Positions 13,321 through 49,771 of a stretch of DNA of 64,000 bases are shown piece by piece. The stretch is from Candidatus Obscuribacterales bacterium (lineage in GTDB: Bacteria > Cyanobacteriota > Vampirovibrionia > Obscuribacterales > Obscuribacteraceae): the NCBI GenBank assembly GCA_965228855.1, contig CBDDIJ010000002.1:64001-128000 (forward strand), written 5' to 3'. A model generated the notes under the pieces. That model saw nothing but the letters and a program-made list of their open reading frames with translations. It was not told where the DNA came from and made no database searches. The position numbers were made by a program, and so were the translations under genes. How positions within the stretch are numbered: position 1 is the stretch's first letter; each line of letters starts with the position of its first letter.

Positions 13321-13447
13321 GTGTCAATGACAGAGCGACGAAATCTGCTAAATCCGTCGCTATGGGATCGACGGAGCTGGTTCTACAATCGGTCTGTCAA
13401 TGACACAGCGACGGAATCCGCTAAATCCGTCGCTCTAGGATTGACAC
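13321..13447. repeat. Two copies of the dispersed ~55-bp palindrome family
   Basis: tgtcaatgaca.agcgacg.aatc.gctaaatccgtcgct...gat.gac at 13321 and 13394. Confidence 0.85.
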
Positions 13448-13496
13448 TGCAGGTCGGCAAAAGAAACACCGGCAGGCACAGCAGTCCAGCCCGTCC

Positions 13497-15574
13497 TTAC
13501 TGCTTGATCACCCAGCGCAACCAGCGCATCGCTTCGGCAACTGCAGTCGCCGAAGCCGGGCAGCCACGCGGCAGCTGCGGTCGGTTTCCGTCAAACATTT
13601 CAGAAATCGAATTCAAACAATCCTCGCTCGAGATATGGTCGAAGATAGGCTGCCAGAGCAGCCGAATGCGATTCACCGTTTCAGGCATCGGCCCGAAAAC
13701 ATTAACGAGCGCATCGCAATACTGCCCAATCAACCAGGGATACGCAGTTCCCTGGTGCCTCGACAAATCCCTGTGATACGGATCCGGATGGGCGAGCCCG
13801 CACCCAAAAACGCCTTGATAGCTCGGGTCCGAAGGCGACAAAGTCCTCACTCCCATCGGAGTAAGTAACTCCTCCTCCACCACCCGCAGTATCGCTTTTT
13901 CCTGATCGACGGAAACGCACGATACGGCAACGACACTGCCAGCAGCTGATTACAGCGGACACTATCGTCCTTCCTCTTACTCTGCGGCACACCCGTATCG
14001 ATAATATCGAACAGGCAAGAGCGCTCCTCGTTCCAAAACTTGCTCATCGAATTCTTGGCTTGCTCAGCCAGTTTCCTCACTCGCGTCGCATCGTCGTGCG
14101 TGACGGTTTCGGCAAAAAAGGCTACTGTTTCCAGGAAGTTATACCAGAGAGCACATAGCTCCACAGCCTTGCCGGAGCGCGGCGTAATCGGCATGCCCTC
14201 TACTTTGGTGCCCATCCAGGTGAATGCTCTGTCCTTATCTGCACATCGAAGCAAACCGTCATCCGGGTCGACGGAAATCCCCTGGTTCGTTCCGTTCACA
14301 AAATGGTCGATTGCGGAAATCATCTCCGGAAGCTGCTCGGCGACCAACTCCTTGTCCTGAGCAACACGGTAATATTTATATAGAGCCCATCCCCACCACA
14401 GAGTCACGTCAGCAGCTTCATAATCGAATCGCGGCTCAGTTTCGCCACTTTTAAGATCCAGCACCCAGTTCGGCATGATACCGTTTTTAATACCAGTCGC
14501 CTGGGCGCGAAAAATGTCTTTAGCGGCATCGAACCGCCGCGTCGAAACAGTCAATCCCGGCAGAGCCAGCATGGCAGCGCGTCCGCCGCTGTTATACCAG
14601 GGATATCCTTCTATAACTGATTTCATCGGTTCATCGTTCCTAGTCGTAACAAGAAACTGATCGCATGCAAGCAGCATCATATCTGCCCTCTGCGAATTAT
14701 CCAGATTTGACCGATCGATAAGTTCCTTTTGACGCGCCACCACCTCTTTCAGAGCAACGCCACAATCCGGCGCCTGCAGAGGCTTTTCATAACTCGCACC
14801 CAAACAAAATGACTTGTCAGCCTGCAACTTCGCCGAAACAGACCCAACTAAATAAAGATCCTCAGTATTCGGAAGTCCCCTGATAGACTCGATCGGCCAG
14901 TCGAAATCCCACCACCACTGCTTCTGCGATTCATATTTGCCATCACCCCAGGTCAGGCACAGACGGCTGTTCTCATCCAATATAATCACGCTCTGATTGG
15001 GAGATACAAACTGCGCATAGGTTTTATCCGCCGACCCATGCAGCTCTCCATGCATATCTCGGAAGCCCACCAAAAATTTGCAAGTCAATTTGACGTCGTT
15101 GCGCGCCGAATCATCTTCCGGAATCCAGTGATATCCCATATGCACTTGATCGGTGCCCCACGGGTGTACCAACTGTTTCACCAAATAGTTTCCATCAAAC
15201 TCGAAAACCCAGGTCGGACAGGGCAGTGGCGTAAACGACTCCATGAACTTATAACCTGTCGGTGATACCACGCCTGATTCCCAATGGTTGGTAGACAGCT
15301 CATAGTCTCGCCCGTTGATTCGCAACACTTCTTCCACGCGAGACAAGATCAGATGCCGGTTCACCATCGGCTTGACAGCAGAAACCAATACCGCATGATA
15401 CCGCCGGCGGTTCGCGCCGGAGATCGTCCCCATCGAAAAACCGCCCAGTCCATTCGTCACCAACCATTCGCGGTTATCCGGCCTGTCGCGCGACGGATAG
15501 ACGACGGGGATCTCGTAATTGAGCTCCGGATATTGAGATTTCAGCCAGCCGATTATGCCGAAAGTCATGCCCAA
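13497..15574 (-). pseudogene. Glycogen debranching enzyme (amylo-alpha-1,6-glucosidase family), split by a 1-nt frameshift near 13911 (real or sequencing error)
   Basis: EWLVTNGLGG, RRYH, EGYPWY, TWM, TPRSGKAVELCALWYN and RCNQLLAVSL; C-terminus ELLTPMGVRTLSP...HQGTAYPWLIG lies in another frame. Confidence 0.85.
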
Positions 15575-15795
15575 CTCTCGCTAAAAAACGCGTGCCGTTT
15601 CATCCAATTTTTATGCGCCATAAGTCCCAGGTTGGAATCGTCGAATCTCTTGTGGTACTTCGTTCCCGGCAGAAACTTTTTCCAACCTCAAATACATAAA
15701 GCTTGGCGCCGGAGCAGTTTAAAAGTTACCTTTCGATTCAAACAAATGCGCCCACCAGCCTACATACGCGATTTCGAAAGCGATACGCCCTGCAA

Positions 15796-16332
15796 TTAAA
15801 CCTTAATCAGAGGCACGCTCTCACTGGAAAGTTTTGAGCGCCGCCACTCCGACGTGTTCCGCGAATGCGAGCCAGCGTCGAGTTTTTGGGCCTCGTCGAA
15901 GCGTTTTAACAGTGTTAAAACATCGCGATAGTTACCCAAAATCATCTTAGTTTCCGGATGGTTCCTTCCCAACATGCGCTCTTTAATTGCGAGCGCTTGT
16001 TTGTAGAACGGCTCCGCATCCGCATATTTGCCCCAGGCGTGATAGAGCATCGCCATGTTGTTCGCAACGATCGCGACGTCAAAGTGATCGCGACCGAGCT
16101 TGCGCTCGTACTTGCGCAAAAGGCGACGCAGCAGAGGCGCCGCCAGGGAAAACTTTTGCTGATACCAGAACGTCTCCGCCAGACTTTCCAAGGTGTAGGT
16201 CAGTCGAACGTCGTCGCCGTTGCCCTCTGCAACTTCAAGCGCTGCCAGAAAATGCTGCTCAGCCGATGGGTAATCGCCAGCCGCGACTGCGGTTTCAGCG
16301 GCACTTATGAAAACGTCGTATTCATCTGGCAT
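15796..16332 (-). CDS. Tetratricopeptide repeat protein
   Basis: TPR motifs NNMAMLYHAWGKYADAEPFYKQALAIKERMLGRNHP; the longer ORF start lies inside the repeat array. Confidence 0.85.
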   Translation of the reverse strand: MPDEYDVFISAAETAVAAGDYPSAEQHFLAALEVAEGNGDDVRLTYTLESLAETFWYQQKFSLAAPLLRRLLRKYERKLGRDHFDVAIVANNMAMLYHAWGKYADAEPFYKQALAIKERMLGRNHPETKMILGNYRDVLTLLKRFDEAQKLDAGSHSRNTSEWRRSKLSSESVPLIKV

Positions 16333-16379
16333 GGCGCAGCACCTGCAAATCCAATTGGAAATATATTGTACCACCGCGT

Positions 16380-17015
16380 CTACTATAAAGCTCCGCACCC
16401 GACACGCTTCGAAACCCGGCATATGCCAACACTCCATCCCTACTATAAAGCTCCGCACTAGACATGCCCCGAAAACAGGCATACGCCTGCACTTACGCTC
16501 AACGAACGCTCTCGCTCACCGCGTTTGTCTATGACAGAATGCCGGAATTCGCGAAATCCGTCGCTCTCTCGTAGCCACGGCATCTCTACTATAAAGCTCC
16601 GCACTAGACAGGCCCTGGAAACAGGCATACGCCCGCACTTACGCTCAACGAACGCTCTCGCTCACCGCGTTTGTCTATGACAGAATGCCGGATTTCCCAA
16701 AATCCGTCGCGCTCTCGTAGCCACGGCATCCCTACTATAAAGCTCCGCACCCGACACGCTTCGAAAACAGGCATACACCTGCACTTACGCTTCACGAAGG
16801 CTCTCGCTCACCGCGTTTGGCTACGACAGAATGCCGGATTTCCCAAAATCCGTCGCTCTCTCGTAGCCACGGCATCCCTACTATAAAGCTCCGCACCCGA
16901 CACGCTTCGAAAACAGGCATACACCTGCACTTACGCTTCACGAACGCTCTCGCTCACCGCGTTTGTCTATGACAGAATGCCGGAATTCGCGAAATCCGTC
17001 GCTCTCTCGTAGCCA
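16380..17015. repeat. Tandem array of four 146-bp units (CTACTATA + palindrome) plus a 60-bp partial unit
   Basis: ctactataaagctccgcac at 16380, 16440, 16586, 16732 and 16878. Confidence 0.97.
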
Positions 17016-17269
17016 AAACGCCCACGAGAATCTGCCTCAATAGATGCACATACTCAAGAAGCTCAGAGGCAAAGGCTTTCAAGGTTTCGTCCCCAAGAAC
17101 TCTTATTGCGCTCTATAGTACTAAGAGGTGTAGCACGCAAAGACAAAAGTGACAGCAAAGAAAAAACGGGCTCGTTAGCCGACCATGCCCAAGGGTTTCC
17201 CCTTGAGACATGGCCGGCTTCGAAACCGCTGATTCTTTAGCCGTCTTTTTCATACTGCTCCTTGCAGAA

Positions 17270-18145
17270 TCAGTCGAGGTTGCGGTGGACCGCGATGGTC
17301 TCGGTGGGAACCCAGGCGCCCTTGCCGTTCTTGGCGTTCTTGTCCCACTTGTGGCGAACGCTGTTGAATTCGAGGCGGAAGTAGTACCCGAAGAACCGCG
17401 CACCCTTGCCGCATGCGAAGAACGAATCCGCGAACCAGTCGAGGGTCACGATCTCTTCGATGTTGGCGATGCGCTCGTCGACTTCCAGCTTCAGGACGAT
17501 GTCGCCCGTGCGGCTGGTGGTGTCGTCGGGCAGGTCCAGAACCAGGTTCGCCTTCTTGATGGAGAAGTTCACCCGGTCGTGAGCAGCATTGCCCCACCAG
17601 TTGTACCTGGCGAGACTCCACTTGCTTCCCCAACCGAAGAACCGCGCCAGCCGAAGGGCAAACGCCTTGTCCGGGCGAACCCGTCCTTCGTCACCGATGC
17701 ACTTGTCGGCGATTACCACAATCGCGTGTTCCGGGGATTGAATCCCGCGCTTGATCACCTTGCCGGCGCGATGCAGGCCGATGATTTCGCAAACACGCGC
17801 GCGCAGGTCGTTCGGAACGCCCTTCCGGTCCAGGTATCCCTTGGCCAGAATTGCGCCTTCGACGTCGTGACGGTCCAGGTCAATGGAACGCCCGATGTCG
17901 TGAAGCCACGCGGCAACCGGAATGACGAACTCCTTCGTGACCTCGTCCATCATGCCCGGAAAAGCCCGGTCAAGCTGAGCGGTCAGACTGAGAGCAAGGT
18001 CGCGCACTTCGTCACCGTGGACGTAGTCGTGGCGCGTCTGCCCCTTCGAGTTCTTGTCACCCTTCTCGTAAACTGCGAGGAGCTCGGGGTCGCGATACAT
18101 CGCGTCCCGAATCTTGATGAGCTCCTGAATGGTCATAGTCGTCAT
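17270..18145 (-). CDS. HD-domain phosphohydrolase
   Basis: H...WLHDIGR...H...H...ADK metal ligands; GGGAG RBS. Confidence 0.85.
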   Translation of the reverse strand: MTTMTIQELIKIRDAMYRDPELLAVYEKGDKNSKGQTRHDYVHGDEVRDLALSLTAQLDRAFPGMMDEVTKEFVIPVAAWLHDIGRSIDLDRHDVEGAILAKGYLDRKGVPNDLRARVCEIIGLHRAGKVIKRGIQSPEHAIVVIADKCIGDEGRVRPDKAFALRLARFFGWGSKWSLARYNWWGNAAHDRVNFSIKKANLVLDLPDDTTSRTGDIVLKLEVDERIANIEEIVTLDWFADSFFACGKGARFFGYYFRLEFNSVRHKWDKNAKNGKGAWVPTETIAVHRNLD

Positions 18146-18418
18146 AATCTCCCTTGGTTTAGAGACGAACACCACCGTGGTGTCCGCCTGTGTTTGTTGA
18201 AAACGAAAACGATGTTCTCGGCGCAGTTTCGGTTTGGACGAACGAACGAGACCCGATCAGCGAAATGCTTAACTACATCTGGCTATTCGGCTTGTCTGTT
18301 TTTCTTTGTCTCTAGTTGTCCTGGTTTTCTTATGCGCTTAAATGAACAACTCAACCTATCAAGCGCCTTTGCGAGATCTCAAGAGGAGCAACATAAACTC
18401 CTACTCATATCCGTCCTT

Positions 18419-18560
18419 CTACTAAATCCCAAAGTATCAACAATCTCCCAAAGCATCCGCAAAACGGGCCTTTCAGGACGGTCAACTCTCCCGACGCTCT
18501 TCGTTGTCTATGAGCGATAGATGCGATGACGATTTTCCAAAAATTCGTCTCGTAAATAGG
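18419..18560. repeat. Degenerate copy of the CTACTATA/palindrome element
   Basis: ctactaaa at 18419; ttgtctatga...gatgacgattttccaaaaattcgtct. Confidence 0.55.
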
Positions 18561-18604
18561 GTTAAGGACGTTACCGCCCGGCACCCGCCTTCCAAAAGTC
18601 AGTC

Positions 18605-18642
18605 AAAAAAAAGAGTGATACCTCAATCGGTACCACTCTTTC
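18605..18642 (-). terminator. Intrinsic terminator
   Basis: aaaaaaaagagtg.tacc...ggtaccactctttt. Confidence 0.65.
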
Positions 18643-18810
18643 AAATTGCTCGCAGGACCGGTGCTGCCCTCGGTAGAAACCATCCCTGGTTACTCTCTTC
18701 TGGAGTACCTGCGTCACGTCAGTCAAACTCTAATTCGGATGATACCGAACTAGAATCTAACATCTCTTTTATGCCCAGTCTGTAGGGTTTTTACGAGAAA
18801 TTGCAGATAA

Positions 18811-20028
18811 TTACGCGGGCGGACCATAAGGTGGTGATGGTGGCGGAGGCGGCGCGCCGCCCTCTCCATGCGAAGAATCGCCAGCTGAGCCAGGTTGAGA
18901 GGCACTACCCGTACCACCAGGAGTGGTATCGAAGTCATCCTCGTCGTAAAACTCATCGCCCTCACCATCAGCGTTATCAGCAACGTCGGCGTTCATCTCT
19001 TCTTCATTTGTGGCATGAAAGGACATCTCAGCTGCAGGCTCTGATGGAGGCATGGGAGCTGGTGTAACCGCAGCTGGTTGGCGTTCTGAGTTTATGAGTG
19101 TCACCAGATGCGCCACCAGACGTTCCGCCTGACTGCGCCCTAATTCGTCCCAGTGAGGGATTCCAAATGTTTTTTCCGAGTATTCATCGGCTTCTTCGTC
19201 AGTCCATCCTATTAAATCGAGGGCGCGACCAAGAACAGTCAAATAGTTTTGGTCAGTGACTTCTCCGAGAGTTACGGCTTCCGAAACGGGCGCCGGAGCA
19301 AATGCCGGCGGCGGCGGTGCCGATGCCCCAGGTGTCGCAGGTGCGCCAGGTGTTGCTGAGGTGCCTGGAGCGCTCGGTGAACTGGAACTCGGAACGCCAA
19401 TCATTGTAGGTGGCGTTGCAGATGTTGATGGACTCTGCTGTTGCGCTGCTGCAGCGGCGGTAGCAGCAGCGGCTGCGGCGGCCGCTGCCTGTATGTGCGG
19501 CGGCGGAGCAGAGGTTCTGATCTCGGGTCCAAGAGTAATTTCTTGAGGAGGCAGGACCGGTCTCGGTTCCTCGCGAACCGGCTCGGCGGGCTCCATTGGC
19601 TGCCAGGGCGAGTCTGTTTCACCCGAAAGTTCTTGCTTCAAAGATAGCGAGATGACGAGCTGTCTGAGTTCATCGATCTGCCTGGAGATCTCGATGAACC
19701 GCCGCTCGCAAAATGTTCGCATTCCGATTAGCGATTCGAGGACGACTTCCGGATTTCCGGGCGGCGTAGGCATGCCGATTAGCTTCGGCGTAATCAAACC
19801 TTCCGCTTCAATCTGCGGGCGAATCTGAGATGTCGGCCACCCCTGCTCGACGAGTTCCTTGATTCGCTCAAGTATGGTCAAATCTTCGGGGCGATACTGA
19901 CGCTGCTGCCCGCGCCCCCGTTTGATTTCCAAGCCGAACATCAGTTCCCAGCGCCGAAGCTGGTGAACCGAGAGCCCCAACCTGGCGGCTACTGTGTTGA
20001 TAGACATCATATGGTCTTGAGACACCAT
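18811..20028 (-). CDS. MerR-type HTH protein with long low-complexity C-terminus
   Basis: SINTVAARLGLSVHQLRRWE...GQQRQYRPEDL..LERIKELVEQGW. Confidence 0.85.
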   Translation of the reverse strand: MVSQDHMMSINTVAARLGLSVHQLRRWELMFGLEIKRGRGQQRQYRPEDLTILERIKELVEQGWPTSQIRPQIEAEGLITPKLIGMPTPPGNPEVVLESLIGMRTFCERRFIEISRQIDELRQLVISLSLKQELSGETDSPWQPMEPAEPVREEPRPVLPPQEITLGPEIRTSAPPPHIQAAAAAAAAATAAAAAQQQSPSTSATPPTMIGVPSSSSPSAPGTSATPGAPATPGASAPPPPAFAPAPVSEAVTLGEVTDQNYLTVLGRALDLIGWTDEEADEYSEKTFGIPHWDELGRSQAERLVAHLVTLINSERQPAAVTPAPMPPSEPAAEMSFHATNEEEMNADVADNADGEGDEFYDEDDFDTTPGGTGSASQPGSAGDSSHGEGGAPPPPPSPPYGPPA

Positions 20029-20250
20029 ACACTCTCCTGTCGTCTGGACCGAAAACGTCAACCTCTACTAGGTTACACGAACTAGCGAAGCTAAGCTAGC
20101 TATGCATTTCGTACCCGCTATTCACGGTTCTAACCGTCCCTTTTTTATCGGAAACCGAAAACTGCCTACTAGATCCATCAGTATCTAGTTTCTCCCGGCA
20201 AGCCCATACTCGGCACCGCTTCGGTTTCGCATCAAATTTCCCGGTCGCCT

Positions 20251-20464
20251 TTGGCTACGCCACAATGACAGATTTCGCCAAAAGCGGCATTCTGTCATAG
20301 ACAAACGCATCGAAGGCGGATCCATCTATCTCCCGAAAGCTAGACCAGAACAGCGACTTGCGATTTAAATTTATACTTCTGCATATAGTAGCGAGATTCC
20401 TAATTCCCGAAAGCCAGCCCAGAACGTCCGCTCCAGCTGTAACGGATACCAACGCATATAGTAG
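20251..20464 (-). repeat. CTACTATA/palindrome element in reverse orientation
   Basis: Reverse complement of 20251-20308 matches the 16521 copy; TATAGTAG at 20384 and 20457. Confidence 0.9.
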
Positions 20465-20540
20465 CACAACTTCAAAAGCGAAGAGGCAGAGACCTGATGG
20501 TCTCTACCTCCCGCCCGCCGTCAGGGCTTAATCTGACGAC

Positions 20541-20984: not shown

Positions 20985-21502
20985 GGTATTTGTCCTTTGT
21001 GAGGCGTCCGCCTGAGAGGTTGTCACCGAACACACGTTCAGTTTCCGAACCAAACAAGGAGACGCCTGTGGTGATACAGGCTGTTTGTGCCAGACAGCGC
21101 CAGTGCCTGTGATGACTGGTGCTGTTTCCAAAACAGAAAGCCTGCCTCTCTAGAACCCGGTCTCGACCCGCTGCTCAAAATTCAGTGTAGAAGTCCTGAA
21201 AAAGCACAACGGATATGGGTTTTTGAAAAGCCTACTTACAGTGGAGCGCGAGAAAAAATAGTGATATGACGGTAGCAAAGGCGAAACCTGGTAAGCAATC
21301 AGGAATAAGCAATATTGAGCGGTTTCATGTGCAAACTACGAAGAAAAACCTTTGAGATATCACCTCTTTACAATTAGCAGACAGAAAAACATATCTAGTA
21401 ATTTCATGACGTATAGACAGGAGAATAGTAAACTCCAGAGGTCGCATTCGGCAGGCGTCTGCGCAGCCGACGAGGCGGCGTGCTCGTGTTGGGAGGTTCA
21501 CC

Positions 21503-23378: not shown

Positions 23379-23383
23379 TTGAG

Positions 23384-26322: not shown

Positions 26323-26330
26323 TCTGATTT

Positions 26331-26535
26331 TACTACTATAGAATCTAGGATTCACCATTCCTCGAAAGCCTCTCGCATCGAGCTTCTCAGCGATCTACTA
26401 CTATATAATTTAGGAGTTATCATCCCTCAAAAGCCTCTCGCATCGACATTCTTGGGATTTCAGCCATTTCACTAGCCCGATTTTGGCTATCTGGCAATGA
26501 CGCTTTTCCCAAATTCCGTCATTCTGAGAGCGACA
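26331..26535. repeat. CTACTATA/palindrome element with a ~66-bp duplication
   Basis: tactactata...aaagcctctcgcatcga x2; palindrome ttggctat...aatgacgcttttcccaaattccgtcatt at 26483. Confidence 0.8.
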
Positions 26536-32091: not shown

Positions 32092-32434
32092 CTACTATAC
32101 TTTCGCGTATCAGCCAAACCGGGAGAAGCCCTACCAGGCATGGCTTTATAGACTTCCCCCCAAAAGAAGAGCCCCCAATCAACTCTCAGTGTCTACGACA
32201 GAACGACGGATTTCAGAAAAATCGTCTACGAGCCATAGACAAACCGACAGACCTGACCGAACACCAGCACGCGAGGAAGTCCGCAAACCCGAAACTGGCA
32301 AGCCTTCCGCCCGCTCAGACATCCCTCCCTAGAAACTAAATCCTATAGTAACAGTCCAACGGAAGTCCGCAAACCCAAAGCTGGCTAGCCTTCCGCCCGC
32401 TCAGACGCCCCCTAGAAACTAAATCCTATAGTAG
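32092..32434. repeat. CTACTATA/palindrome element followed by two ~86-bp direct repeats ending in TATAGTA
   Basis: ctactata at 32092; palindrome 32190-32242; ggaagtccgcaaaccc at 32275 and 32361. Confidence 0.85.
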
Positions 32435-35617: not shown

Positions 35618-35980
35618 TCTACTATATGCCCGCATTAAACCCGTCTACTATATGCCGACATATCTTCGCAACACCCAAAGCGCAGTACAGGCATGCTTTT
35701 CCACTCCTACGTCACTTCTCAGTTCCACGCAAAACCCGGTTTTGGCTATCCAGCTACGACGGATTTAGGAATTTCCGGCAACGAGAGAGCGCCAGAACCA
35801 TCTACTATATGCCGACATACCCTCGCGACACCCGAAGCGCAGTCTATGCAGGCGTATCCAGCCCTGCATCCCTTTCCAATTTACTTAGAAACCCGGTTTT
35901 GGCTATCCAGCTACGACGGATTTAGGAATTTCCGGCAACGAGAGAGCGCCAAAACGGGATTGCTGCGCGCCTCTACTATA
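35618..35980. repeat. Two 157-bp tandem units of the CTACTATA/palindrome element
   Basis: acccggttttggctatccagctacgacggatttaggaatttccggcaacgagagagcgcca at 35734 and 35891; ctactata at 35619, 35645, 35802 and 35973. Confidence 0.93.
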
Positions 35981-38754: not shown

Positions 38755-38903
38755 CTACTATATCTTTTAAGATAATATAAATCCGCAAACACGGTTATGG
38801 ACTCCGCTTCCAGCCATTCAATATTCTCGCTCCGTCGATTTCCAGCCAGCTGTCTACGCTGCATAGACGAATTTTCGAAAATCTGTCTACGCCACGCAGA
38901 CAA
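38755..38903 (+). repeat. CTACTATA/palindrome element upstream of the PLD-HTH gene
   Basis: ctactata at 38755; tgtctacg...tagacgaattttcgaaaatctgtcta...gcagaca at 38851. Confidence 0.75.
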
Positions 38904-39073
38904 CAATCGCGCATTCAGTTTTTAGCTTGAAATTGCCAGCAATCCCAGTGACCATCGAAATCCTGAGAGCGCGCCTGAAAGTTTCTCAAAAAATCTTTGC
39001 CAAAAATTGAACTTTTTAGTTGTCAATTTCGTAGATCAAATTAGACACCATACGAGTTTTTCGAGGAGGCGTT

Positions 39074-39847
39074 ATGATCGCAACCGAGTCAGATATTTTC
39101 ACGGACGAAACCTTCTGGGACCCCTTCTACACCGACCTTGCCAAAGCCCACAAAAGCATCATCATCAGCTGTCCATTCGTGCGACGGTGGCGGCTCGATC
39201 GACTCGAATACCAACTTAAAACAATGATTCGAAACGGAATTTCCGTTTGTATTTTCGTTCAGACCCCGGCTAGTCTTCGCAAAGAGAAGGGCAATCTCTC
39301 AGCAGAAGAAGATCGCGAAATCTGCGACTACGAGCGGGATATTAAACGCATGAGCACCTGGAAAGCACACGTCACCGAACGACCGCGCGCGCATCAAAAG
39401 TTCGCGATAATCGACGGAACGAAGCTCTGGGAGGGGAGCTTGAACATACTGAGCCACAGAGATGGCGCCGAACACATGCGGAGATTCGACTCCAGATATG
39501 AAGCTGAACGCGTGACAAAACTGCATGAGCTGGACCGCTGTTTCGACTGTGAAGTCTTGAGAGCAAAGTATTTTGTCGCCGCGCCCAATGTGGAACTACA
39601 AAGGCAAATGATTGCGCACGCGATTCACTCGCATCGGAAGTACCAGAAATTTTCGTTGCGTGATTTGAGCGCCGCCAGCGGTGTCGCGCACCAACGAATC
39701 AGTCAAATCGAAAACGCCAAGTACTTACGCGCTATAGACCCGCTCTTCGAGATATTCAATGCCTTGGGTCTGCGATTGATTGTCGCTCAAGCGGATGACG
39801 TTTCTGCGGTGTTGAACCAGATTGATATACGAAGTGCAGCTCGGTAA
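39074..39847 (+). CDS. PLD-superfamily nuclease-like domain + CxxC + XRE HTH; paralog of 3368-4312
   Basis: HQKFAIIDG..LWEGSLNILSH; CFDC; FSLRDLSAASGVAHQRISQIEN; GAGGAGG RBS. Confidence 0.82.
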   Translation: MIATESDIFTDETFWDPFYTDLAKAHKSIIISCPFVRRWRLDRLEYQLKTMIRNGISVCIFVQTPASLRKEKGNLSAEEDREICDYERDIKRMSTWKAHVTERPRAHQKFAIIDGTKLWEGSLNILSHRDGAEHMRRFDSRYEAERVTKLHELDRCFDCEVLRAKYFVAAPNVELQRQMIAHAIHSHRKYQKFSLRDLSAASGVAHQRISQIENAKYLRAIDPLFEIFNALGLRLIVAQADDVSAVLNQIDIRSAAR

Positions 39848-39884
39848 TTGGCGATGCAATCGGAGACCTGCTTCAGAACCCCGG

Positions 39885-40145
39885 TTGGCTATCCTGCTAT
39901 GACGGAAATGCGAACATTCGGCATTCCAGGATAGCCAAACCGTACCAAGCTCAATGGCATCCGTCTCGAAACCTCGACCCAGCGCCATGTTCAAGAAAGA
40001 CGCATCATGACTTCATATAGTAGTAAGGATGGGAGAATTCGGCATTCCAGGATAGCCAAACCAGGGCGAGCTCAAGGGGCATCCCACCGAAACCCCCGAC
40101 ACAGAGCCACATCGGAGATAAGCTTACCACGATGTCCTATAGTAG
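39885..40145 (-). repeat. Reverse-oriented CTACTATA/palindrome element with a ~121-bp duplication
   Basis: ttggctatcc..atgacggaaatgcgaacattcggcattccaggatagccaa; TATAGTAG at 40016 and 40138. Confidence 0.85.
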
Positions 40146-41677: not shown

Positions 41678-41689
41678 AGCGATAACTCC

Positions 41690-43141: not shown

Positions 43142-43619
43142 GGATGGTGCTCCATTCCTTAGTTTTGTTGGGTGAAGATCAGACCCCGCGTGAGCGGGAT
43201 CCAGTGAGCGACCAGCACTCGGGTGGACAAGCACTTAAGCCCTTGACGGTTTTTGTTGATGCTAGCCGTTTTTGCTTTTAGTGCCTTTTCATTACCCGAG
43301 GACAAACTTGTCAAGAGACACTCTGTTTCTAGCATCGCGAAAAAGACCATACAAGCCTAAGTTTACATGTAAACCCAGGTTACGGTCCGCGCCCGAAGTC
43401 GCCCGCGTGCGCGGAAACCACAACAGGCTGCATGAGATCTTATTTCGCGATGCAGAACAGATAAGAGTTCATTGACTGCAGTTAATATCACAAGCAATTA
43501 GCTTACCTGCGCTAGCCTGAATCAAGAGACTGACGCGAGCTCAGCGAATCGTTCGAAGCTCAAGCCGACCAGTCGCAAACGCTTTGCGCACAATCGCTCC
43601 GGCGACCACACGGTCACCT

Positions 43620-44342
43620 TCAGAGCTGCATCTCGCGAGCTCTTTTCACCAGAGCCTTAAACAGACGCGCGCTCCCCTCGTAGTCGGCTTCGGGATGCCA
43701 CTGCACTCCGAGCGTGAAAGGACGCGTTTCATGTTCGACCGCTTCGATGATGCCATCGTCGGACCAGCCGGTCACGACCAGACCCCGACCGAGGCGATTG
43801 ATGCACTGGTGATGCGAACTGATCGGCCGCTCAACAGCTGCCGAACGGTAGATGCGCCGAAGCTGCGACCCCGCGCTCAGCCGCACCGGATGGCGGGCGA
43901 CGTCCTCGCGATTTCGATGCAGCACACCGTGACCGGGTTTGACCGTCTCGATGTCCTGCGTAAGCGAGCCGCCCAACTTGATGTTGAGCAGCTGGTGACC
44001 GCCGCAAATACCGACAATCGGTTTCGGTTCACCCATGCGATCGCGCGCCTGGAGCGCCAGACGCATGAGTCTGAGGTCGAACTCCTCGCGAATCGGGTGC
44101 AGGGGCTGCACACTCTCGTGCGGCTCCTCCCCGTAAAGCGCGGGCGAATAATCGTTGCCGCCAATGAATACGAAACCGCTCACGAGGTCGAGAATCTGCG
44201 GCAGATCTCTGGTGGGGAGCGGCGCAACCGGCAGCGGGATGCCGCCGGCTTTGCGGATGGCTTCGACATAAGTGCGACCAACGCGCACTTTGCCGGTGCC
44301 AGTGGTTTCAATCTCGCAATTGAGAGCAATGAAAGGTTTCAC
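43620..44342 (-). CDS. Peptidase C26 / gamma-glutamyl-gamma-aminobutyrate hydrolase-like glutamine amidotransferase
   Basis: GG.DY.P..YG, GICGGHQLLN, SSHHQ, GVQWHPE; GGAG RBS before a GTG start. Confidence 0.9.
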   Translation of the reverse strand: MKPFIALNCEIETTGTGKVRVGRTYVEAIRKAGGIPLPVAPLPTRDLPQILDLVSGFVFIGGNDYSPALYGEEPHESVQPLHPIREEFDLRLMRLALQARDRMGEPKPIVGICGGHQLLNIKLGGSLTQDIETVKPGHGVLHRNREDVARHPVRLSAGSQLRRIYRSAAVERPISSHHQCINRLGRGLVVTGWSDDGIIEAVEHETRPFTLGVQWHPEADYEGSARLFKALVKRAREMQL

Positions 44343-44637
44343 GGCGTGATCTCCGATTCTTAGTTTTCTTATGGAGATGAGATGCAAGCAGCGGTTAAAC
44401 TGCTTGCGGTGACCCGAACGAACACATTTCGGTTCAGCCGACCGCGCAACGGCGTCGCACGGTCGCGTTCTGCGTGAGTTAAACAGACGCGCCTGGACGC
44501 ATCTGATGAGGATGTCGCCGACGGCATGGACTTGACCCACTCTGCATACCGGCAGCGGAATGCCAAAAGTCAGCATTCCTCTGACGGTATGACTGAGGCA
44601 AGACATCGATACCGTGGCGAGAAGTCCGAGCGAATCG

Positions 44638-46458
44638 TCAGCCGCCGCTCGGCTCCGCCGGAACAGGAGCTGGGGTTTCGTCCTCTTCCGGCTCGTCAAC
44701 CAGAGGCGCACGCGCCGGAGTCTTGCCCTTGCGATCGCCGACGATCCAGTCCTTCAACGCCTCGCCCTTCGGAACACCCCATCCGGTCGGATGATCCCAG
44801 TGGTCACCGGCTTTGAAACCGGGCCCGCGGAAATCACCGTTGTCACCACTGGTGATGTCATGGAAGGTGGAGCCGTAGTCAGCCGAGTCGCCCAGGCGAT
44901 AGAGGGTTTCGACAGGCATGCCGATGCGTTCGCCGGCCGCTTCATCGATGAGCGCCCAGAGAGCAGCCCAGGCCGGAGCGGCGACCGAAGTGCCTCCCCA
45001 GCCTTCCCATTTGCCTTCGAAGTAGAAGGCATAGGCGGTTCCAGGAGCAGCATTGAGCGAAACGTCAGCCGTCGAGCGGAAATCGCCGGCGGGAACGCCA
45101 GCTCCTTTCTGCCACGAGGGACGCTTCCAGTACTCGGAGTTGCCGCCGCCAGAGCCGTACCACGCCCGTTCGGACGTGCGCTTGCCGGAGGACGAGTACA
45201 GGGTCGTGCCACCAACTGCGGTGACGTACGGGTCGGACGAAGGGTAGTCGACCGCCAGATTCACGACCGGCTTCTTCTTGCCGTCCTCGCCTTCTTCCTC
45301 TTCGTGCTTGCAGTCGTAGGCGCCGTCATCGCCGGACGCGGCGAAGATGGCGATGCCCTGCGAGGCCGCTTGCCGGAAGATGTTGTGCTCGGTTTTCATC
45401 TGCCGCTTGCCGGTGTGCTTTTCGCAAAGCCCCCAGCTGATCGACATGATGTCGGCTTTGTTGTCGGTGACGATTCGATTGAACACCAGCGTGAAGTTGG
45501 TGAACTTCGCATCGACGCCAAGGTACATGATCACGTCAGCACCAGGCGCCAAGCCGCTCACCGTCTGCAGGTCCAGCGTCGTCTCCTCGTTGAGCTTCGT
45601 CGCCGTCCCGCCGATGTACTCGTTGGTCAGCGTGCCCGTGCGCTGGATGTTGAACTGCTTCCAGTACGCGTCGATGTCCTTCTGGTCGTACGTATACGCG
45701 GTCGCCACGGCAATGGTTTTGCCTTTGCCGGTCAGCGCCGTGCCCTTCACATTCGGGTTGAGCGTGTTGGGATAATCGTAGACCTTCGAAATCTCCTGCG
45801 GCGAGAAACCGCGAGGCGCTGTCGCATTGGAGTGCGGCTCCTTTGCGCGCATGCGCGACTCGAATTCGGCATACGTGTCCAGCCCCATCACCGATTCGAT
45901 GATCGCCGAAAGGCGAGTCGGGATGACGGGATCACGGTCGTTGGACAGATAGGTTTTGATGCCGCCTTCGGGCAGCTTGACCGTGTACTTGTTGATCGTG
46001 ACGCCGAAAGCCGCTTCGAGCTGGCTTACCGTGCCCTCCGCCTCGACAAGCGTGCGGTTGGGCGAAACATTCGTCACCGACAAACCGCGCTCCTGCAAGA
46101 AGAGAACGACATTGTCGACGTCCTGCGGAAGTGGCGAGAAACGGCCGGCAAAATCGGCCGGGCTGAGATACTTGCGAAAGTTCGGCGACCCGGGGTCGGC
46201 GATCTCGGAGAGCAAGCGGTCGAGACCGGCTTCATCACGCAGCTTGAGCCCGACGACGATTTTCATCGTCTGGCTTTCGTCGGCGTGGTGTTCCAGCGTC
46301 GACTGCTGCACCACGGATGGTGTGTCGCCGGTGAGCTGGAATCGCCCATGAAGGTTCAGTGCCAGAAAGGCGTTGGGCGCAAAAACAGTCAGCAGGAAAA
46401 GACAGGTCAAACCAATCGCCGATGCGACGGCGAAGAGCTTGCGGTTATTGCCTGACAT
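44638..46458 (-). CDS. Secreted S53 (sedolisin/kumamolisin) peptidase with pro-domain
   Basis: ETTLD (ExxxD), SISWG, SGDDG, AVGGT, GGTSVAAP, WD..TGWG. Confidence 0.92.
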   Translation of the reverse strand: MSGNNRKLFAVASAIGLTCLFLLTVFAPNAFLALNLHGRFQLTGDTPSVVQQSTLEHHADESQTMKIVVGLKLRDEAGLDRLLSEIADPGSPNFRKYLSPADFAGRFSPLPQDVDNVVLFLQERGLSVTNVSPNRTLVEAEGTVSQLEAAFGVTINKYTVKLPEGGIKTYLSNDRDPVIPTRLSAIIESVMGLDTYAEFESRMRAKEPHSNATAPRGFSPQEISKVYDYPNTLNPNVKGTALTGKGKTIAVATAYTYDQKDIDAYWKQFNIQRTGTLTNEYIGGTATKLNEETTLDLQTVSGLAPGADVIMYLGVDAKFTNFTLVFNRIVTDNKADIMSISWGLCEKHTGKRQMKTEHNIFRQAASQGIAIFAASGDDGAYDCKHEEEEGEDGKKKPVVNLAVDYPSSDPYVTAVGGTTLYSSSGKRTSERAWYGSGGGNSEYWKRPSWQKGAGVPAGDFRSTADVSLNAAPGTAYAFYFEGKWEGWGGTSVAAPAWAALWALIDEAAGERIGMPVETLYRLGDSADYGSTFHDITSGDNGDFRGPGFKAGDHWDHPTGWGVPKGEALKDWIVGDRKGKTPARAPLVDEPEEDETPAPVPAEPSGG

Positions 46459-46666
46459 TTTGGAGCTCCTGATATGCGCGAACGCGCCAGACAATTTCCT
46501 GCCTGGCGCGCTGCGTCTTATTTGTTGAGGGTTCGACGAGCACTTCGCGTCACACACCGATTTAGCGCCTGAAACAGACGCGTGGATGTGGTGAAACTAG
46601 CGGCGCACGACGAACAAAGTCACATCCGCCGGAGAAGCGCTTGCAGCGCCTCTCCTGCGCGGAGCG

Positions 46667-47719
46667 TCAGTTGAAGTGCGACGGGCTGTCGACCAGAGGG
46701 TCGTCGTAGGCGGGCTCGTTTTTCACGGCGGGATCGTAGGTCTCGGTGATTTTCTCCGAAGCCTCGTGCTTCACCGTCGTCTTCGTGCCATCGGTCTGAA
46801 CGATCTCCTCGCGCTCGACCGTGCCGTCATAGCGGAAATAACGGGTCTTGGTCGGCTGGCCGTTGGTGATGTCCGTCGCCACCTTCAGGTTGCGGCTGCC
46901 ATAGCGCTCGAACTCGAGCTTGCGCGTCAGAGTGACGCCGTCGGCGCCGAACTCCTCGACCTTCTCGAGCGTGTAATAGCGGTAACTGCTGTACGCGTAG
47001 CGGTAACCGCTCCACGTCTGCGTGTACCGTGGCTTGCCATCGGCACCATGGACGGTGACAAGCATGCGATCGTAGAAAACCTCGCGGGTCTGATCGCGCG
47101 TGCCGTCGAGACGGAAGGTCTCGACTTTGCTGTCGCCGTTCTTCAGCTCGGTCGCGTTCGCCCAGACCGTGGTACCGTCGGCATGGAAGTAGGTCGAGAC
47201 CTTCTTCCCGTCGGGCGCTGTGTCGGTCACGCTGAGACGACGCTTGCCGTCATTGCGGTAACGAACCGTGTGGCTCGAACTGTCAGCCTTGAACTCCGTC
47301 ACTGCATCGACGCCGCCGTCGAGGCGGTAGGTGGTCTCATCGACTTTGGTGGTGCCATCCGGCGCCATCCGCGTAGTCGACTTGACCTTGCCGGTCGAGT
47401 ACGGGTGCATCTCCTGCACCTCCTTGACCGTGCCGTCCGTGCGGTACCACTGCACCTCCGTCCGGCCACCCTGGCGGTACTGAATCTCGAGCTTGTACAG
47501 CGTCACACCATCGGGCAGATAGGTGTAGATGCGCTGCAGCTCTTCCGACTCATCCGGCTTGGGAATGACCTTGACGATGTACTTGGGCTGCGCCGGCTGC
47601 GCTTTCACAGGAGGCGGAGGCGGAACCTCATCCTCCTGCTTGCAGCCGGTGAGCGAAAGAGCAAGCCCAGCAACGAGCGCCGAAACGGCGATGAATCGAC
47701 TCATGGAGAATCGGCTCAT
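46667..47719 (-). CDS. Lipoprotein with beta-hairpin (MORN/YwqK-like) repeats
   Basis: Lipobox LTGC; repeated (Y/F)R.DG.. units. Confidence 0.75.
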   Translation of the reverse strand: MSRFSMSRFIAVSALVAGLALSLTGCKQEDEVPPPPPVKAQPAQPKYIVKVIPKPDESEELQRIYTYLPDGVTLYKLEIQYRQGGRTEVQWYRTDGTVKEVQEMHPYSTGKVKSTTRMAPDGTTKVDETTYRLDGGVDAVTEFKADSSSHTVRYRNDGKRRLSVTDTAPDGKKVSTYFHADGTTVWANATELKNGDSKVETFRLDGTRDQTREVFYDRMLVTVHGADGKPRYTQTWSGYRYAYSSYRYYTLEKVEEFGADGVTLTRKLEFERYGSRNLKVATDITNGQPTKTRYFRYDGTVEREEIVQTDGTKTTVKHEASEKITETYDPAVKNEPAYDDPLVDSPSHFN

Positions 47720-47971
47720 TGTTGTTTACTCCGTTGTTTGGGAACGTGCGCTCCGCAGGGCGGAGCACAGTTCCGGGATAGAGACGAATCAGGGACACCG
47801 GCGGCGATACCACAGCCAGCAACGCTTTTCGGTTTAAAACCGATTGCGCCACCAGGAGCGATACCACCACCGGATCCCGATTTAGTCGCAGGAAACTGCT
47901 AACAGGTCTGATGACTCTCAGCGAGTCCGTTTTGAAACGGGCTGCCGAGCAATCGACCTATCGGCGCCAGC

Positions 47972-49018
47972 TCAATACTTCGGAGCCGGACAGGAACCGC
48001 CGTTCATGTATTCGAGCATCTTGACGCGCTCGGACACGGGCGGGTGGGTGAGCTGCAGGTACTTCCAGAACGCCTTCAGGCGGTCCCAGATGCCCCGCGG
48101 CTTCGGGTCGTCAGCGAGCGCGTCGAACAGCGGGTCGACCGTCATCATCGGACGCAGCGCCCGATACATCTCGGCGTCGCGGCCCTTCGGACGGTTTTTC
48201 TCGACATAAGCGACGAGCTTCTTGAGCGCGTTGGCGAGGTCGCAAGGCTTGCCCGTCATCATCGAACCGGACGCGTCGGCGCCCGACTCACGCGAGCGAA
48301 CGACGAACACCTGCACGAGCTTGGTGAGCTGCCCGGTGATCTGGAAGATCACGAACATGATCACCCACTCCAGGATGCCGGTGAAGAAGCCCTTGTTGTT
48401 CGGGTTCATGCCCAGGACCTTCTTGAACCAGCCCAGGGTGCCCAGCAACATGCGCACGCCGCTGTCGACGATCGAGAAGAAGATCATCGAGAGCACGGAC
48501 GTCATCGTGTTGAGCGCGACGTCGTAGTTCTTCACGTGACCGAGTTCGTGGGCGAACACGGCCTCGATTTCATCGTCGGTCATGCCGCAGAGGAACAGCC
48601 CCTTGGTGGCAGCGACGACAGCCTTGCGATGGATCGGTCCGGTCGCGAAGGCGTTGGGCAGCGGGTTGTCGGAGATGTAGACCGGCGGCTTGAACTTCAG
48701 ACCGCTCTTCGCGTAGACGCGATCGACGATCTCGATCAGCCGGCGATGCTCCGGATTGGACGGATCGGCGGGCACCGACTTCGTCATGGCGATCGCGACC
48801 TTGTCGCTGAACCACCACATGACGAGCGGCAGGAACCACCACAACATACCGAAACCGAGCTTGAACTCGTAGGTGAAACCAAAGCCCCAGAGGGCAAGCA
48901 GGACCAGACCACCCATCATGCTGTAGCCGAGGATAGTCTTGAACCAAGCGAACATCATGGCCCGCTTGATTGCCGGATACTTGGGGTCATCCGGCGGGAT
49001 AACTCTGTGTCGCGACAT
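47972..49018 (-). CDS. htpX: HtpX-family M48 zinc metalloprotease
   Basis: PNAFATG, AHELGHV, SRE..AD, THPP..ER. Confidence 0.9.
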   Translation of the reverse strand: MSRHRVIPPDDPKYPAIKRAMMFAWFKTILGYSMMGGLVLLALWGFGFTYEFKLGFGMLWWFLPLVMWWFSDKVAIAMTKSVPADPSNPEHRRLIEIVDRVYAKSGLKFKPPVYISDNPLPNAFATGPIHRKAVVAATKGLFLCGMTDDEIEAVFAHELGHVKNYDVALNTMTSVLSMIFFSIVDSGVRMLLGTLGWFKKVLGMNPNNKGFFTGILEWVIMFVIFQITGQLTKLVQVFVVRSRESGADASGSMMTGKPCDLANALKKLVAYVEKNRPKGRDAEMYRALRPMMTVDPLFDALADDPKPRGIWDRLKAFWKYLQLTHPPVSERVKMLEYMNGGSCPAPKY

Positions 49019-49622
49019 ATGTCACTCCATTTCTTGTTTAGGATTTCTTGGATGAAAGTGATTGGATTGCTCTGCCAGAACCGGCTCCCGAACAGTCGAC
49101 CGTAGCTGGGCTTCGAGTACGCGACCAACCTGCCGCACAAGGTGTGCGCGCACGTTGTGACGAGCGGAACGAAAAGCCTCTAGCGAACAGCCACCTGACG
49201 CGCGAACAAACGTTTAGCGTCGAACACAGAAGAGAACCAGCGATACCACAGACGGTGCCAGTCGCTCCATAACGGCAGCAAATGACAGACGCACAGGCGG
49301 CGCAAGTTGTGATTTCTCTACGTGTTGAAACTAAATGCTTGGTGGCGTTTCTGGATTCGGATATCTAAACAAAACAATCGGCTTGTAAACTACGAATTGT
49401 CAGGATATAGAGACAAGAGATAGAAGAAGCACCAAGGTGCAAATCAGTTCATAAACCAAAAGAAGCTATGGTTCAGATCTCGTTGCCAAGCGATTCTAAC
49501 ACCCGAAAACGGTTTCAAACAAACCCGAAGCAGACCCAATTCTTGACAGCCCTCCTTGTCAAGAACGACTCCCCACGCCATTCTTTAGCCTCTCGCACAG
49601 CTCGCGCGCACACAGAAAATGC

Positions 49623-49771
49623 CTACTATATGATTTCATATCTTTAAAATCCCGAAACACCGAACGGACAATCACTTCGGGTCCCTCCAGATCAACCATC
49701 CTGATCAAAAATGACTTTTGTCTACGACTCGTTGCCGGATTTCACGAAAAGCGGCAACGCCCCATAGACAA
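49623..49771 (+). repeat. CTACTATA/palindrome element
   Basis: ctactata at 49623; ttgtctacg...ttgccggatttcacgaaaagcggcaa...atagacaa. Confidence 0.85.

Follow-up and report, generated by a model that had tools for sequence, protein, structure and literature searches.

What is the imperfect palindrome of about 55 bp that recurs between genes in the window (the whole 64,000-nucleotide stretch analysed here, DNA of the Candidatus Obscuribacterales, an uncultured cyanobacterial relative), and what has spread it? We found that the repeat is probably a non-autonomous element, bound and copied by a PLD-HTH protein whose gene lies between two of its copies. Scanning with a genome-trained PWM returned 210 palindromes genome-wide and none in the reversed genome. 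Fourteen full copies in the window pass this PWM, with 52-bp cores starting at 13322, 13395, 16526, 16672, 16818, 16964, 20252, 26484, 32190, 35743, 35900, 38851, 39886 and 49719, and a half copy lies at 40035–40060. The recurrence and intergenic setting described in the original prediction are thus borne out, as are its listed sites except for the degenerate copy at 18504, which fails the PWM. The features of the window are as follows, with distances running from box to palindrome centre.

2577–3133, no strand: 'family C', three copies (2577, 2789 and 3079) of another ~55-bp palindrome that shares the GATTT-N4-AAATC centre.
3368–4312, plus strand: gene for a PLD-CxxC-HTH paralogue (31% identity), preceded by another repeat family.
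13322–13446, no strand: two palindromes with a 73-bp period, of a subfamily with TGTCAAT outer boxes and without an inward box.
16380–17015, plus strand: four 146-bp box-linker-palindrome units (16440–17015) and a duplicated box at 16380; 111.5 bp.
18504–18556, no strand: degenerate palindrome with extra bases in the left arm and a broken right arm, under the PWM threshold.
20166–20464, no strand: two-sided element with CTACTAGA box at 20166 (111.5 bp), palindrome 20252–20303, inward box 20384–20391 (113.5 bp) and extra box 20457–20464.
26333–26535, plus strand: boxes at 26333 and 26398, linker, palindrome 26484–26535; 111.5 bp.
32092–32434, no strand: two-sided element with box at 32092 (123.5 bp), palindrome 32190–32241, one-mismatch box at 135.5 bp and extra box 32427–32434.
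35619–35980, plus strand: 157-bp array with boxes at 35619, 35645, 35802 and 35973 and palindromes 35743–35794 and 35900–35951; 123.5 bp.
38755–38902, plus strand: left end of the composite, with CTACTATA box 38755–38762, linker and tandem-dyad palindrome 38851–38902; 121.5 bp.
39074–39847, plus strand: partner gene for a 257-aa protein with a PLD-superfamily nuclease domain, CxxC and a HipB/XRE-type HTH.
39886–40023, minus strand: right end of the composite, with palindrome 39886–39937, linker and inward box 40016–40023; 111.5 bp.
40035–40145, minus strand: duplicated half unit, from half palindrome 40035–40060 to box 40138–40145.
49623–49770, plus strand: box 49623–49630, linker, palindrome 49719–49770; 121.5 bp.

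Each palindrome consists of two 19-bp dyads set 33 bp apart. The palindrome had been recognized correctly, but each of its supposedly simple arms is itself a dyad, and the 5–6-nucleotide spacer variation described earlier gave way to a core of fixed length in the PWM matches. An exact inward CTACTATA box stands at ~100, 111, 123 or 133 bp (range 100–135 bp) from 149 of the 210 palindromes. Allowing at most one mismatch gives 241 box–palindrome pairs in all, with distances of 99.5–101.5 bp (11 pairs), 109.5–113.5 bp (110), 115.5 bp (1), 119.5–125.5 bp (105) and 131.5–136.5 bp (14). All ten hand-counted distances were reproduced from the box and centre positions, and the predicted phasing extends genome-wide, but in four classes rather than two and with a best-fitting period of ~11.5 rather than 10.5 bp. 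The box is enriched near palindromes as anticipated (203 exact boxes in the 89 kb of intergenic DNA that holds palindromes, 9 in the 194 kb that holds none); its presence beside almost every copy applies to 12 of the 14 in the window, but not to the 73-bp pair at 13322/13395, where no box faces inward. Box positions 4–6 are nearly invariant and position 7 is the most variable (CTACTAGA in 19 and CTACTAAA in 6 of the 241). Among the 179 boxed copies, 62 are two-sided with inverted ends of 8 bp each and 117 are one-sided. The element extends from the CTACTATA box through the dyad pair, 140–260 bp, and often on to a second, inverted box.

The palindrome carries little hairpin signal. Real arms have a folding energy of -11.0 kcal/mol; exchanging arms among copies gives -9.7, and perfectly paired arms give -31.7. 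Cross-arm pairing is at or below expectation at positions -10 to -5 and modestly above it at -22, -13 and -1, and the strongest positional coupling is between adjacent bases. The dyad arms, together with folding near the swapped-arm value, support the earlier proposal of a double-stranded protein site rather than an RNA hairpin.

The composite at 38755–40023 encloses the partner gene, which the original prediction missed, along with the gene-plus-dyad pairs of the host family. The predicted catalytic residues of its product are H107, K109, D114, G121, S122 and N124, in a motif HxK-x4-D-x6-GSxN; 44 of 45 proteins retain its HxK. The PLDc_2 profile match falls just below the cut-off, NucT and Zucchini are fold matches at E ~1e-5, and the top fold match is TrmBL2 (PDB 5box, 11% identity). 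By motif and fold the protein belongs to the PLD superfamily (Nuc-like), with predicted nuclease activity, and its HTH is of the XRE type, resembling HipB and controller proteins. Matches of PLD-HTH proteins in PADLOC and NCBIfam cover partial domains only, those in NCBIfam all below cut-off. The gene is under purifying selection (dN/dS 0.06 against its G007 orthologue, 0.05–0.14 overall), and family palindromes flank it in both G000 and G007. A 54%-identical variant lies between 73-bp palindrome arrays at two different loci (G007 and L180), and these arrays are of the same subfamily as the window pair at 13322–13446. The PLD-HTH protein had no match in plasmids and none at E ≤ 1e-25 among 400 members of a wider phylum sample drawn without host-family genomes; viral contigs contained no palindrome match.

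The pairing of gene and dyad recurs across genera of the Obscuribacterales. Of 56 homologue loci, 27 have a tandem dyad of their own (score at least 32, within 500 bp), as do 2 of 120 control genes, a count that uses an AT-edge filter introduced after the first loci had been seen; before the filter, an initial test found 12 of 28 against 4 of 62, and the loci added last gave 7 of 20. Three of the five G000 paralogues have no tandem dyad by this scoring, and of the 11 'family C' pattern matches in the genome, 10 fall at 4 loci. Variation in dyad sequence follows the recognition helix of the HTH more closely than it follows helix 2 or the PLD domain: in a Mantel test (n = 30, with kin that are not independent), dyad similarity correlated with helix 3 at rho 0.28 (p 0.0005), with the PLD domain at 0.12 (p 0.04) and with helix 2 at 0.04 (p 0.27). 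The HTH of the PLD-HTH protein very probably reads the dyads. In all three genomes tested, the flanking dyads are dispersed in their own genome (11 in G049, 104 in G013 and 11 in G079), versus 0–2, 2–9 and 0–1, respectively, in four other genomes, a pattern that argues for the PLD-HTH protein as the probable agent of their spread.

Cross-locus alignments define what is copied. In 23 alignments (14 locus pairs) the linker is 75–87% alike; the start of 21 alignments falls in the interval from 7 bp outside the first C of the box to 1 bp inside it, and 17 end 26–35 bp past the palindrome centre. The copying unit of related copies is the stretch from the box through the palindrome end, which supports the non-autonomous mobile element that had been one of the predicted options. 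The units at 16440–17015 are 89–91% identical to one another, linker included, and 84–87% identical to a copy 780 kb away. No excess of direct repeats (1–12 bp) was found outside the boxes of the 62 two-sided copies, which if old may have lost a target-site duplication. Assembled contigs of four runs contained array copy-number variants and no clean excision, and the half unit at 40035–40145 differs in copy number in a related public contig. Of 27 large indels, 16 have an end no more than 250 bp from a palindrome, versus 16–18% expected, and many of them are IS110 insertions or array changes. Six aligned cases, among the alignments listed, had no common breakpoint, unlike cassette capture at a fixed crossover. 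Seven IS110 copies were seen, all located within repeats, and offer natural targets for IS110 studies.

The distribution of copies raises a first alternative: the repeats may be origin-region architecture kept by the host, with the PLD-HTH protein serving, like TrmBL2, to organize chromatin or form loops, and with duplication and recombination, not its nuclease, behind the spread of copies. Consistent with this, 174 of the 210 copies lie within 1.05 Mb around dnaA, 33-fold denser than elsewhere, and similar clustering occurs in G049 and, for boxes, in G012. This dense, higher-GC region is not a genomic island or megaplasmid, because the only dnaA lies inside it at the GC-skew switch and it is syntenic with other genus members. 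All 51 element loci assessable in G000 are also occupied in G007, so that movement must now be slow, and motif positions are 1.9% diverged versus 11.6% beside the motif. The alternative also draws on the top fold match to TrmBL2 and on the lack of a chromosomal ParB in the family genomes covered by the search (a 727-aa frame on contig C4 gave the one ParB_N match, and the 18 others gave none); a parS/ParB centromere was itself rejected. Against host architecture, the palindrome family is limited to one clade, with 59 other Obscuribacterales genomes at background levels, dyad sequences change readily from one paralogue to the next, nearly all proteins retain the catalytic motif, and homology across loci ends at the box. 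We regard this alternative as unlikely, and it is not exclusive, since selfish spread may precede domestication. The origin clustering itself falls outside what copying by the PLD-HTH protein explains.

The box leads to a second alternative, in which the HTH marks the element and another conserved host enzyme, such as a tyrosine recombinase, cuts at the box, with the PLD-HTH protein assisting it or living off the sites as a passenger. Copying by the PLD-HTH protein is supported by the recurrence of this inward box in two further genera, phased to unrelated dyads, at 87, 90, 97, 99 and 102.5 bp in G049 and at 94, 96, 96, 105, 105 and 116 bp in G291, where it stands at 96 bp beside the genome's own gene. 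For a host enzyme, the extended box CTACTATA-N6-MGT is identical in three genera whose proteins are ~30% identical, and the box-bearing proteins do not group in a quick tree, so that the box may be read by a host factor. Some boxes also stand alone, with no dyad (none of 9 in G002 and none of 8 in G012 had a clear pair). There are 17 tyrosine-recombinase matches, and two tyrosine recombinase genes lie in the origin region. Against a host enzyme, box-less families disperse too, such as that of G013 with its 104 dyads (the G013 and G079 family loci examined have no box, and in family B of G000 one of 11 loci has a phased box). The syntenic block of G000 and G007 shows no rearrangement between element loci, and the box seems unlike an 11-6-11 dif site. 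A separate host enzyme seems to us more doubtful still.

Copying by the PLD-HTH protein remains the preferred reading. Against it count the box-less families, the solo boxes, the slow present movement, the missing target duplication, the lack of a fixed breakpoint in gene gains beside elements, and the G000 paralogues without a tandem dyad. In this reading the protein likely binds the dyads and likely cuts in or close to the box, so as to copy the element into new intergenic sites. Two HTH dimers would occupy the two dyads, and DNA bending could carry the single active site of the PLD dimer to the box, one helix face away. The box is a putative cut site of this protein, a role to which we give slightly less than even weight. 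Cleavage would proceed through a covalent phosphohistidine intermediate, as in BfiI, and such an intermediate would permit strand transfer without target duplication. The box-dyad-gene-dyad-box composite at 38755–40023 would represent the autonomous form, now largely immobile and vertically inherited, as reported for RAYT genes. Tentatively, PLD-HTH proteins may be transposases of an undescribed chemical class, in which an HTH-guided PLD-fold nuclease mobilizes its gene along with hundreds of miniature elements via a phosphohistidine intermediate, its specificity reprogrammed by a single recognition helix and its cut site, ~100 bp off, set one helical face away.

Least likely is a regulatory module, with dyads as operators or enhancers and the box as a promoter for antisense or small RNAs at gene ends: TACTAT does resemble a -10 box with a purine 8–9 nt downstream, activator sites typically show one-turn phasing and the HTH is of the HipB and controller kind, but the box is conserved in the opposite way to a sigma-70 -10 element (its middle is invariant, and variation peaks at the position that would be T-7 or, read on the opposite strand, A-11), the logos show no -35 signal, sigma-54 was not found (PF04552 without a match in a genome 95% complete), in 135 of 183 cases the box turns its outer side to a gene tail, copies occupy 52 of 78 convergent intergenic regions but just 9 of 108 divergent ones, and 17 of 27 partner-gene dyads lie downstream. 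The original interpretation thus stands for the protein site and the mobile element but not for the promoter or operator. None of the 174 copies lies inside a called gene; the gene calls behind these placement counts were made within this analysis.

TrmBL2 is not known to have an HKD site and binds non-specifically, and the DNA-binding domain of BfiI is not known to be an HTH. The partner protein shares with TrmBL2 a PLD-like domain plus an HTH, but differs in its low identity, HTH type and domain order. Like BfiI and Nuc-type PLD nucleases, it joins a PLD-superfamily catalytic motif to a DNA-binding domain (PMC2475615, PMC2853115). BfiI forms a covalent enzyme–DNA intermediate resolvable by transesterification, but it is a restriction enzyme that cuts beside one short site and is not known to have dispersed cognate repeats, whereas the nuclease here is predicted. 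HipB and the restriction–modification controller C.Csp231I likewise have an XRE-type HTH and two dimer sites with an extended spacer; they are stand-alone regulators at operators of their own promoters (PMC4321490), unlike an HTH fused to a nuclease domain with sites dispersed at gene ends and dyads upstream of the partner gene at only 10 of 27 loci. MITEs of DDE insertion sequences resemble the two-sided copies with inverted 8-bp ends and the composite with one gene inside, but here no target-site duplication was found, the enclosed gene is not a DDE transposase and most copies are one-sided.

Several other readings were rejected. Serine resolvase PF00239 has no match in G000 or G007, which argues against a Tn3-type res site. 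The preference for convergent gaps, the ratio of 778 genes to 131 element loci and the weak hairpin signal set the repeats apart from integron attC sites, and units that repeat linker and all, without an Rfam match, set them apart from a CRISPR array; the missing Rfam match and weak arm pairing also speak against a structured RNA. The earlier statement that the repeat is not REP, attC or CRISPR is right in the strict sense. A fixed distance from box to terminator T-tract was dropped (90 of 141 have no TTTT in the 60 bp upstream, the rest forming a loose, uncontrolled peak at 9–11 bp), as was a likeness of the box to the DnaA-trio, the logos showing no DnaA box upstream.

To our knowledge, transposases use DDE/DEDD, HUH tyrosine, serine, tyrosine-recombinase or Cas1 chemistry, and we met no PLD nuclease with a partner repeat family in the literature we searched. 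If the protein copies the elements, mobile DNA gains an enzyme class; even if it only binds them, ~30 natural helix–site pairs provide a directly testable recognition code.

Among the closest known systems are RAYT (TnpA-REP) genes with REP/REPIN elements (PMC3337134, PMC5581495). In both, a conserved, low-copy enzyme gene lies between palindromes of its own kind, copies number in the hundreds and stand outside genes, behind their ends (mostly downstream, as in REP/REPIN), a genome holds several gene–repeat groups, arrays occur, and IS elements target the repeats. RAYT is a Y1 HUH tyrosine transposase, whereas the enzyme here is a PLD-fold HKD protein with an HTH; a RAYT partner was rejected, Y1 (IS200-like) transposase PF01797 having no match in G000 or G007, with three of eight genus genomes positive. 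REP is recognized as a single-stranded hairpin with paired arms, which the folding energies do not support here; recognition instead looks double-stranded, with two dyads and helix-3 covariation, and a separate, helically phased terminal box is present. GTAG- and CGTC-tagged palindromes, described as 20–40-bp stem-loops with an unpaired tag at one end (PMC3733652), are likewise short and mostly downstream of coding regions, and both tetramers occur here, but internal to a 52-bp four-box site or in the distant box rather than as an unpaired end tag, and with a partner that is not RAYT. The repeat and its gene are thus likely a partnership like that of REP and its transposase, built on a different enzyme class, and an independent parallel to RAYT-REPIN that bears on why bacteria keep repeat families and their enzymes.

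The repeat has a palindrome with a 52-bp core and an 8-bp box, CTACTATA, that faces inward. A PWM built from 11 of the window's copies was run over the 8.2-Mb Candidatus Obscuribacterales genome (G000), with the reversed genome as control, and it detected 210 palindromes in G000 and none in the reversed genome. Within the window it found 14 full palindromes and one half copy, and the palindrome was present where the original prediction had placed it; the copy at 18504 is there but degenerate. All ten box-to-centre distances that had been counted by hand were reproduced. An exact inward CTACTATA lies 100–135 bp from the centre of 149 of the 210 palindromes, and with one mismatch allowed there are 241 box–palindrome pairs on 179 palindromes, inward boxes flanking 62 palindromes on both sides. 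The spacing is indeed discrete, but it falls into four classes rather than the two proposed (11 pairs at ~100 bp, 110 at ~111 bp, 105 at ~123 bp and 14 at ~133 bp, with one between), and it is periodic with a best period of ~11.5 bp instead of ~10.5 bp. The expected enrichment of the box near palindromes was found, with 203 exact boxes in 89 kb of palindrome-bearing intergenic DNA vs 9 in 194 kb without a palindrome. The extended box reads CTACTATA-t-N5-MGTA and is preceded by a weak A and T; a third dyad, faint and containing A- and T-runs, stands at a constant distance from the box. An Rfam search of the window returned zero family matches.

The 52-bp core consists of two 19-bp dyads (TGKC-N11-GMCR) placed 33 bp apart by an AT-edged 14-bp spacer. 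Among 173 non-redundant copies, adjacent bases show the strongest coupling, and cross-arm pairing exceeds expectation modestly at a few positions and is no higher than expected near the centre. Real copies fold at −11.0 kcal/mol, vs −9.7 for swapped-arm copies and −31.7 for perfect arms. That real arms fold barely better than swapped ones, together with the weak cross-arm pairing, favors the earlier suggestion of a double-stranded protein site over a hairpin, and the anatomy appears to fit a site at which two protein dimers would bind double-stranded DNA.

The strict palindrome pattern occurs only in G000 and the related genome G007 among 41 genomes, and the half-site pattern gives 201 and 141 matches in these two vs 0–2 in 59 other members of the order. 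The relative G002 holds a single relic half copy at the orthologous position. A metagenome population, mostly 85–97% identical to G000, carries the repeat with the same spacing classes. Among the matches listed from a GTDB scan, 51 of 53 loci come from one Obscuribacterales MAG, which we do not count as independent, and the remaining two are on a contig 78–94% identical to G000 that is probably misbinned. In the block shared by G000 and G007, 51 of 59 G000 clusters could be placed, and all 51 are occupied in G007; copy number differs at 21 of the 51, to which assembly collapse may contribute. Four G007 clusters have no PWM hit in G000, one being the true absence of a 73-bp array, a palindrome subfamily with that period. 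Across 26 orthologous pairs, divergence is 1.9% at invariant positions, 5.2% at variable positions and 11.6% in adjacent DNA, and 43 of 49 changes respect the allowed alphabet, both results carrying some bias from the selection of PWM hits. The element is real, constrained and phased.

Distant loci could be aligned in 23 cases (14 locus pairs by our own count), with a linker identity of 75–87%. In 21 of the 23 alignments the start falls in the interval from 7 bp outside to 1 bp inside the box's first C, and 17 end 26–35 bp past the palindrome centre, the other six continuing toward the far box. Sharing the box itself says little, since any two copies contain it; what is informative is that homology ends at that point. 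The 62 two-sided copies have no flanking target duplication. Large indels lie near elements in 16 of 27 cases vs 16–18% expected, and the six of these that were aligned share no common breakpoint. Several other features were seen within or beside the repeat family, or elsewhere in the window:

G000 C2:774696, 858557, 987643, 1120766 and 197k, and C5:861k and 1461k: seven IS110-family copies outside the window, falling into types of 3 and 4 copies that share 52% identity with each other, all inside or against the window's repeat family; all three copies of the first type entered at one and the same base of the outer dyad box
Window 10095–13119: coiled-coil protein gene in three near-identical tandem copies (1113/1126-bp period, 97–99%)
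Window 18811–20061: long protein whose N-terminus carries a MerR-type HTH and whose middle is of low complexity, adjoining the two-sided element at 20166–20391
Window 59935–60124: intergenic, five 36-bp repeats with a 38–39-bp period

One gene is enclosed by the repeat, and we refer to it as the partner gene:

Window 39074–39847: partner gene, inside a box–dyads–gene–dyads–box arrangement, encoding a PLD domain together with CxxC and a HipB/XRE-type HTH

The structure model of its product has a pLDDT of 73. The G007 orthologue is 98% identical with a dN/dS of 0.06, and a 54%-identical variant occurs at two distinct loci, in G007 and at L180, each time with 73-bp arrays of this palindrome family on either side. 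Of the 103 other genomes of the family, 56 contain a match to the protein; among the matches listed, 29 span both domains (own count) and many others are PLD-only. A profile search gave 245 cluster representatives at E ≤ 1e-30, and the HxK motif is intact in 44 of 45 aligned proteins. Searches of G000 and G007 turned up neither a Y1 transposase nor a resolvase.

Homologue loci have tandem dyads of their own with the same geometry (width 15–20, period 31–34). In the first test, a tandem dyad was present at 12 of 28 homologue loci vs 4 of 62 control genes. With an AT-edge filter that was derived from the first set of loci and then applied to all, the counts are 27 of 56 vs 2 of 120, the dyad being upstream in ten and downstream in 17 of the 27 positive loci; of the 20 loci added last, 7 pass. 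Over 30 pairs, with kinship effects left in, similarity between dyads goes with similarity in HTH helix 3 (rho 0.28, p 0.0005), weakly with that in the PLD domain (rho 0.12, p 0.04) and not with that in helix 2. The flanking dyads are dispersed in their own genome in all three relatives tested (G049, 11; G013, 104; G079, 11). Two extra dyad families in G000 each adjoin paralogues:

Family B, G000 C2:145608–145812, 572607–572914, 1043743–1044049, 1488769–1489994 and seven more: 46 pairs at 11 loci, in 102–103-bp arrays
Family C: adjoins the paralogue at window 3368–4312

The tandem-dyad score finds none at three of five G000 paralogues, although family C can be seen by eye at one of these three. 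At window 2682–3075, upstream of the 3368 paralogue, 38-bp tandem repeats are interleaved with family C palindromes. At three loci, family B is swapped for parts of the window's family, or the reverse, between strains. A further dispersed site family lies at G000 C3:1508521–1553751, where a 16-bp dyad centred on GATATC forms four direct-repeat pairs with a 32–34-bp period within 45 kb.

Copy density differs 33-fold between 1.05 Mb of contig C2 (174 copies) and the other 7.17 Mb (36 copies). A genomic island was rejected for this dense region, which contains the sole dnaA where the GC skew switches and shares synteny with other members of the genus; it is therefore the origin region. Clustering of elements or boxes near dnaA is seen also in the relatives G049 and G012. 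A chromatin role at the origin region, to which this clustering would speak, is unlikely in our judgment. Chromosomal ParB was not found in G000, and of 30 relatives sampled across the class (G001–G036), 29 yielded no canonical ParB. The origin region (G000 C2:77000–1145000) has a GC content of ~0.55 vs 0.505, 3 tRNA genes in ~1.07 Mb and, by our own gene calls, a coding density of 73%. At G000 C2:1–60000, extending into the window start, GC reaches 0.66 vs 0.50–0.58 elsewhere with zero boxes or palindromes, possibly a prophage, island or misassembly.

In G049, an inward box stands at 87, 90, 97 and 99 bp in four of five paired copies examined, with one additional inward box at 102.5 bp. In the relative G291, one dyad family lies 94–116 bp from 6 of 26 boxes in steps of ~10.5, and G291's own gene has a box and dyads upstream, 96 bp apart. 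The extended box exceeds control counts only in G000 (126), G007 (78) and G291 (26) among 104 genomes. No clear dyad lies beside the boxes of G002 (0/9) or G012 (0/8), the box is missing at nearly all family B loci and at those examined in G013 and G079, and the proteins with a box fail to form a group in a quick tree. This three-genome excess, the dyad-less boxes, the box-less families and the ungrouped proteins count against a general role of the box. That a host enzyme acts at the box is improbable. In the dense region, 204 of 216 boxes are ≤450 bp from a palindrome. In the box-less family of G013 (L320–L328), a second palindrome of ~33 bp with A- and T-runs often flanks, and is possibly a stand-in for the box.

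By our own gene calls, 0 of 174 copies are inside genes, as the original prediction had it; a palindrome is present in 52 of 78 convergent, 67 of 287 tandem and 9 of 108 divergent gaps. In 135 of 183 cases the outer side of the box is turned toward the end of a gene. With this placement, and with sigma-54 not found in G000, a regulatory module is the least probable reading.

Most likely, and with moderately good confidence, the repeat is a non-autonomous element that has an enzyme of its own. Two HTH dimers would bind the dyads, and bending could bring the PLD active site to the box on one helix face; in the PLD superfamily, an excerpt of PMC2853115 states, the active site forms at a dimer interface. 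A covalent intermediate might then permit transesterification, as the available text of PMC2475615 describes for BfiI, and by analogy could move DNA without duplication.

In the open-licence PMC and bioRxiv literature, we found no PLD nuclease with a repeat family, and could not find the class of the partner gene described for mobile DNA. As portrayed in portions of PMC3337134 and PMC5581495, RAYT–REPIN is alike in organisation but differs from the window element in enzyme and hairpin. The terminal tag that an extract of PMC3733652 gives for REP-type palindromes is absent from the window element, and the window's dyads recall the paired dimer sites of C.Csp231I, as sketched in part of PMC4321490. 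Judged from sequence, the element appears to be new by its enzyme class and site architecture, with a mechanism that we infer.
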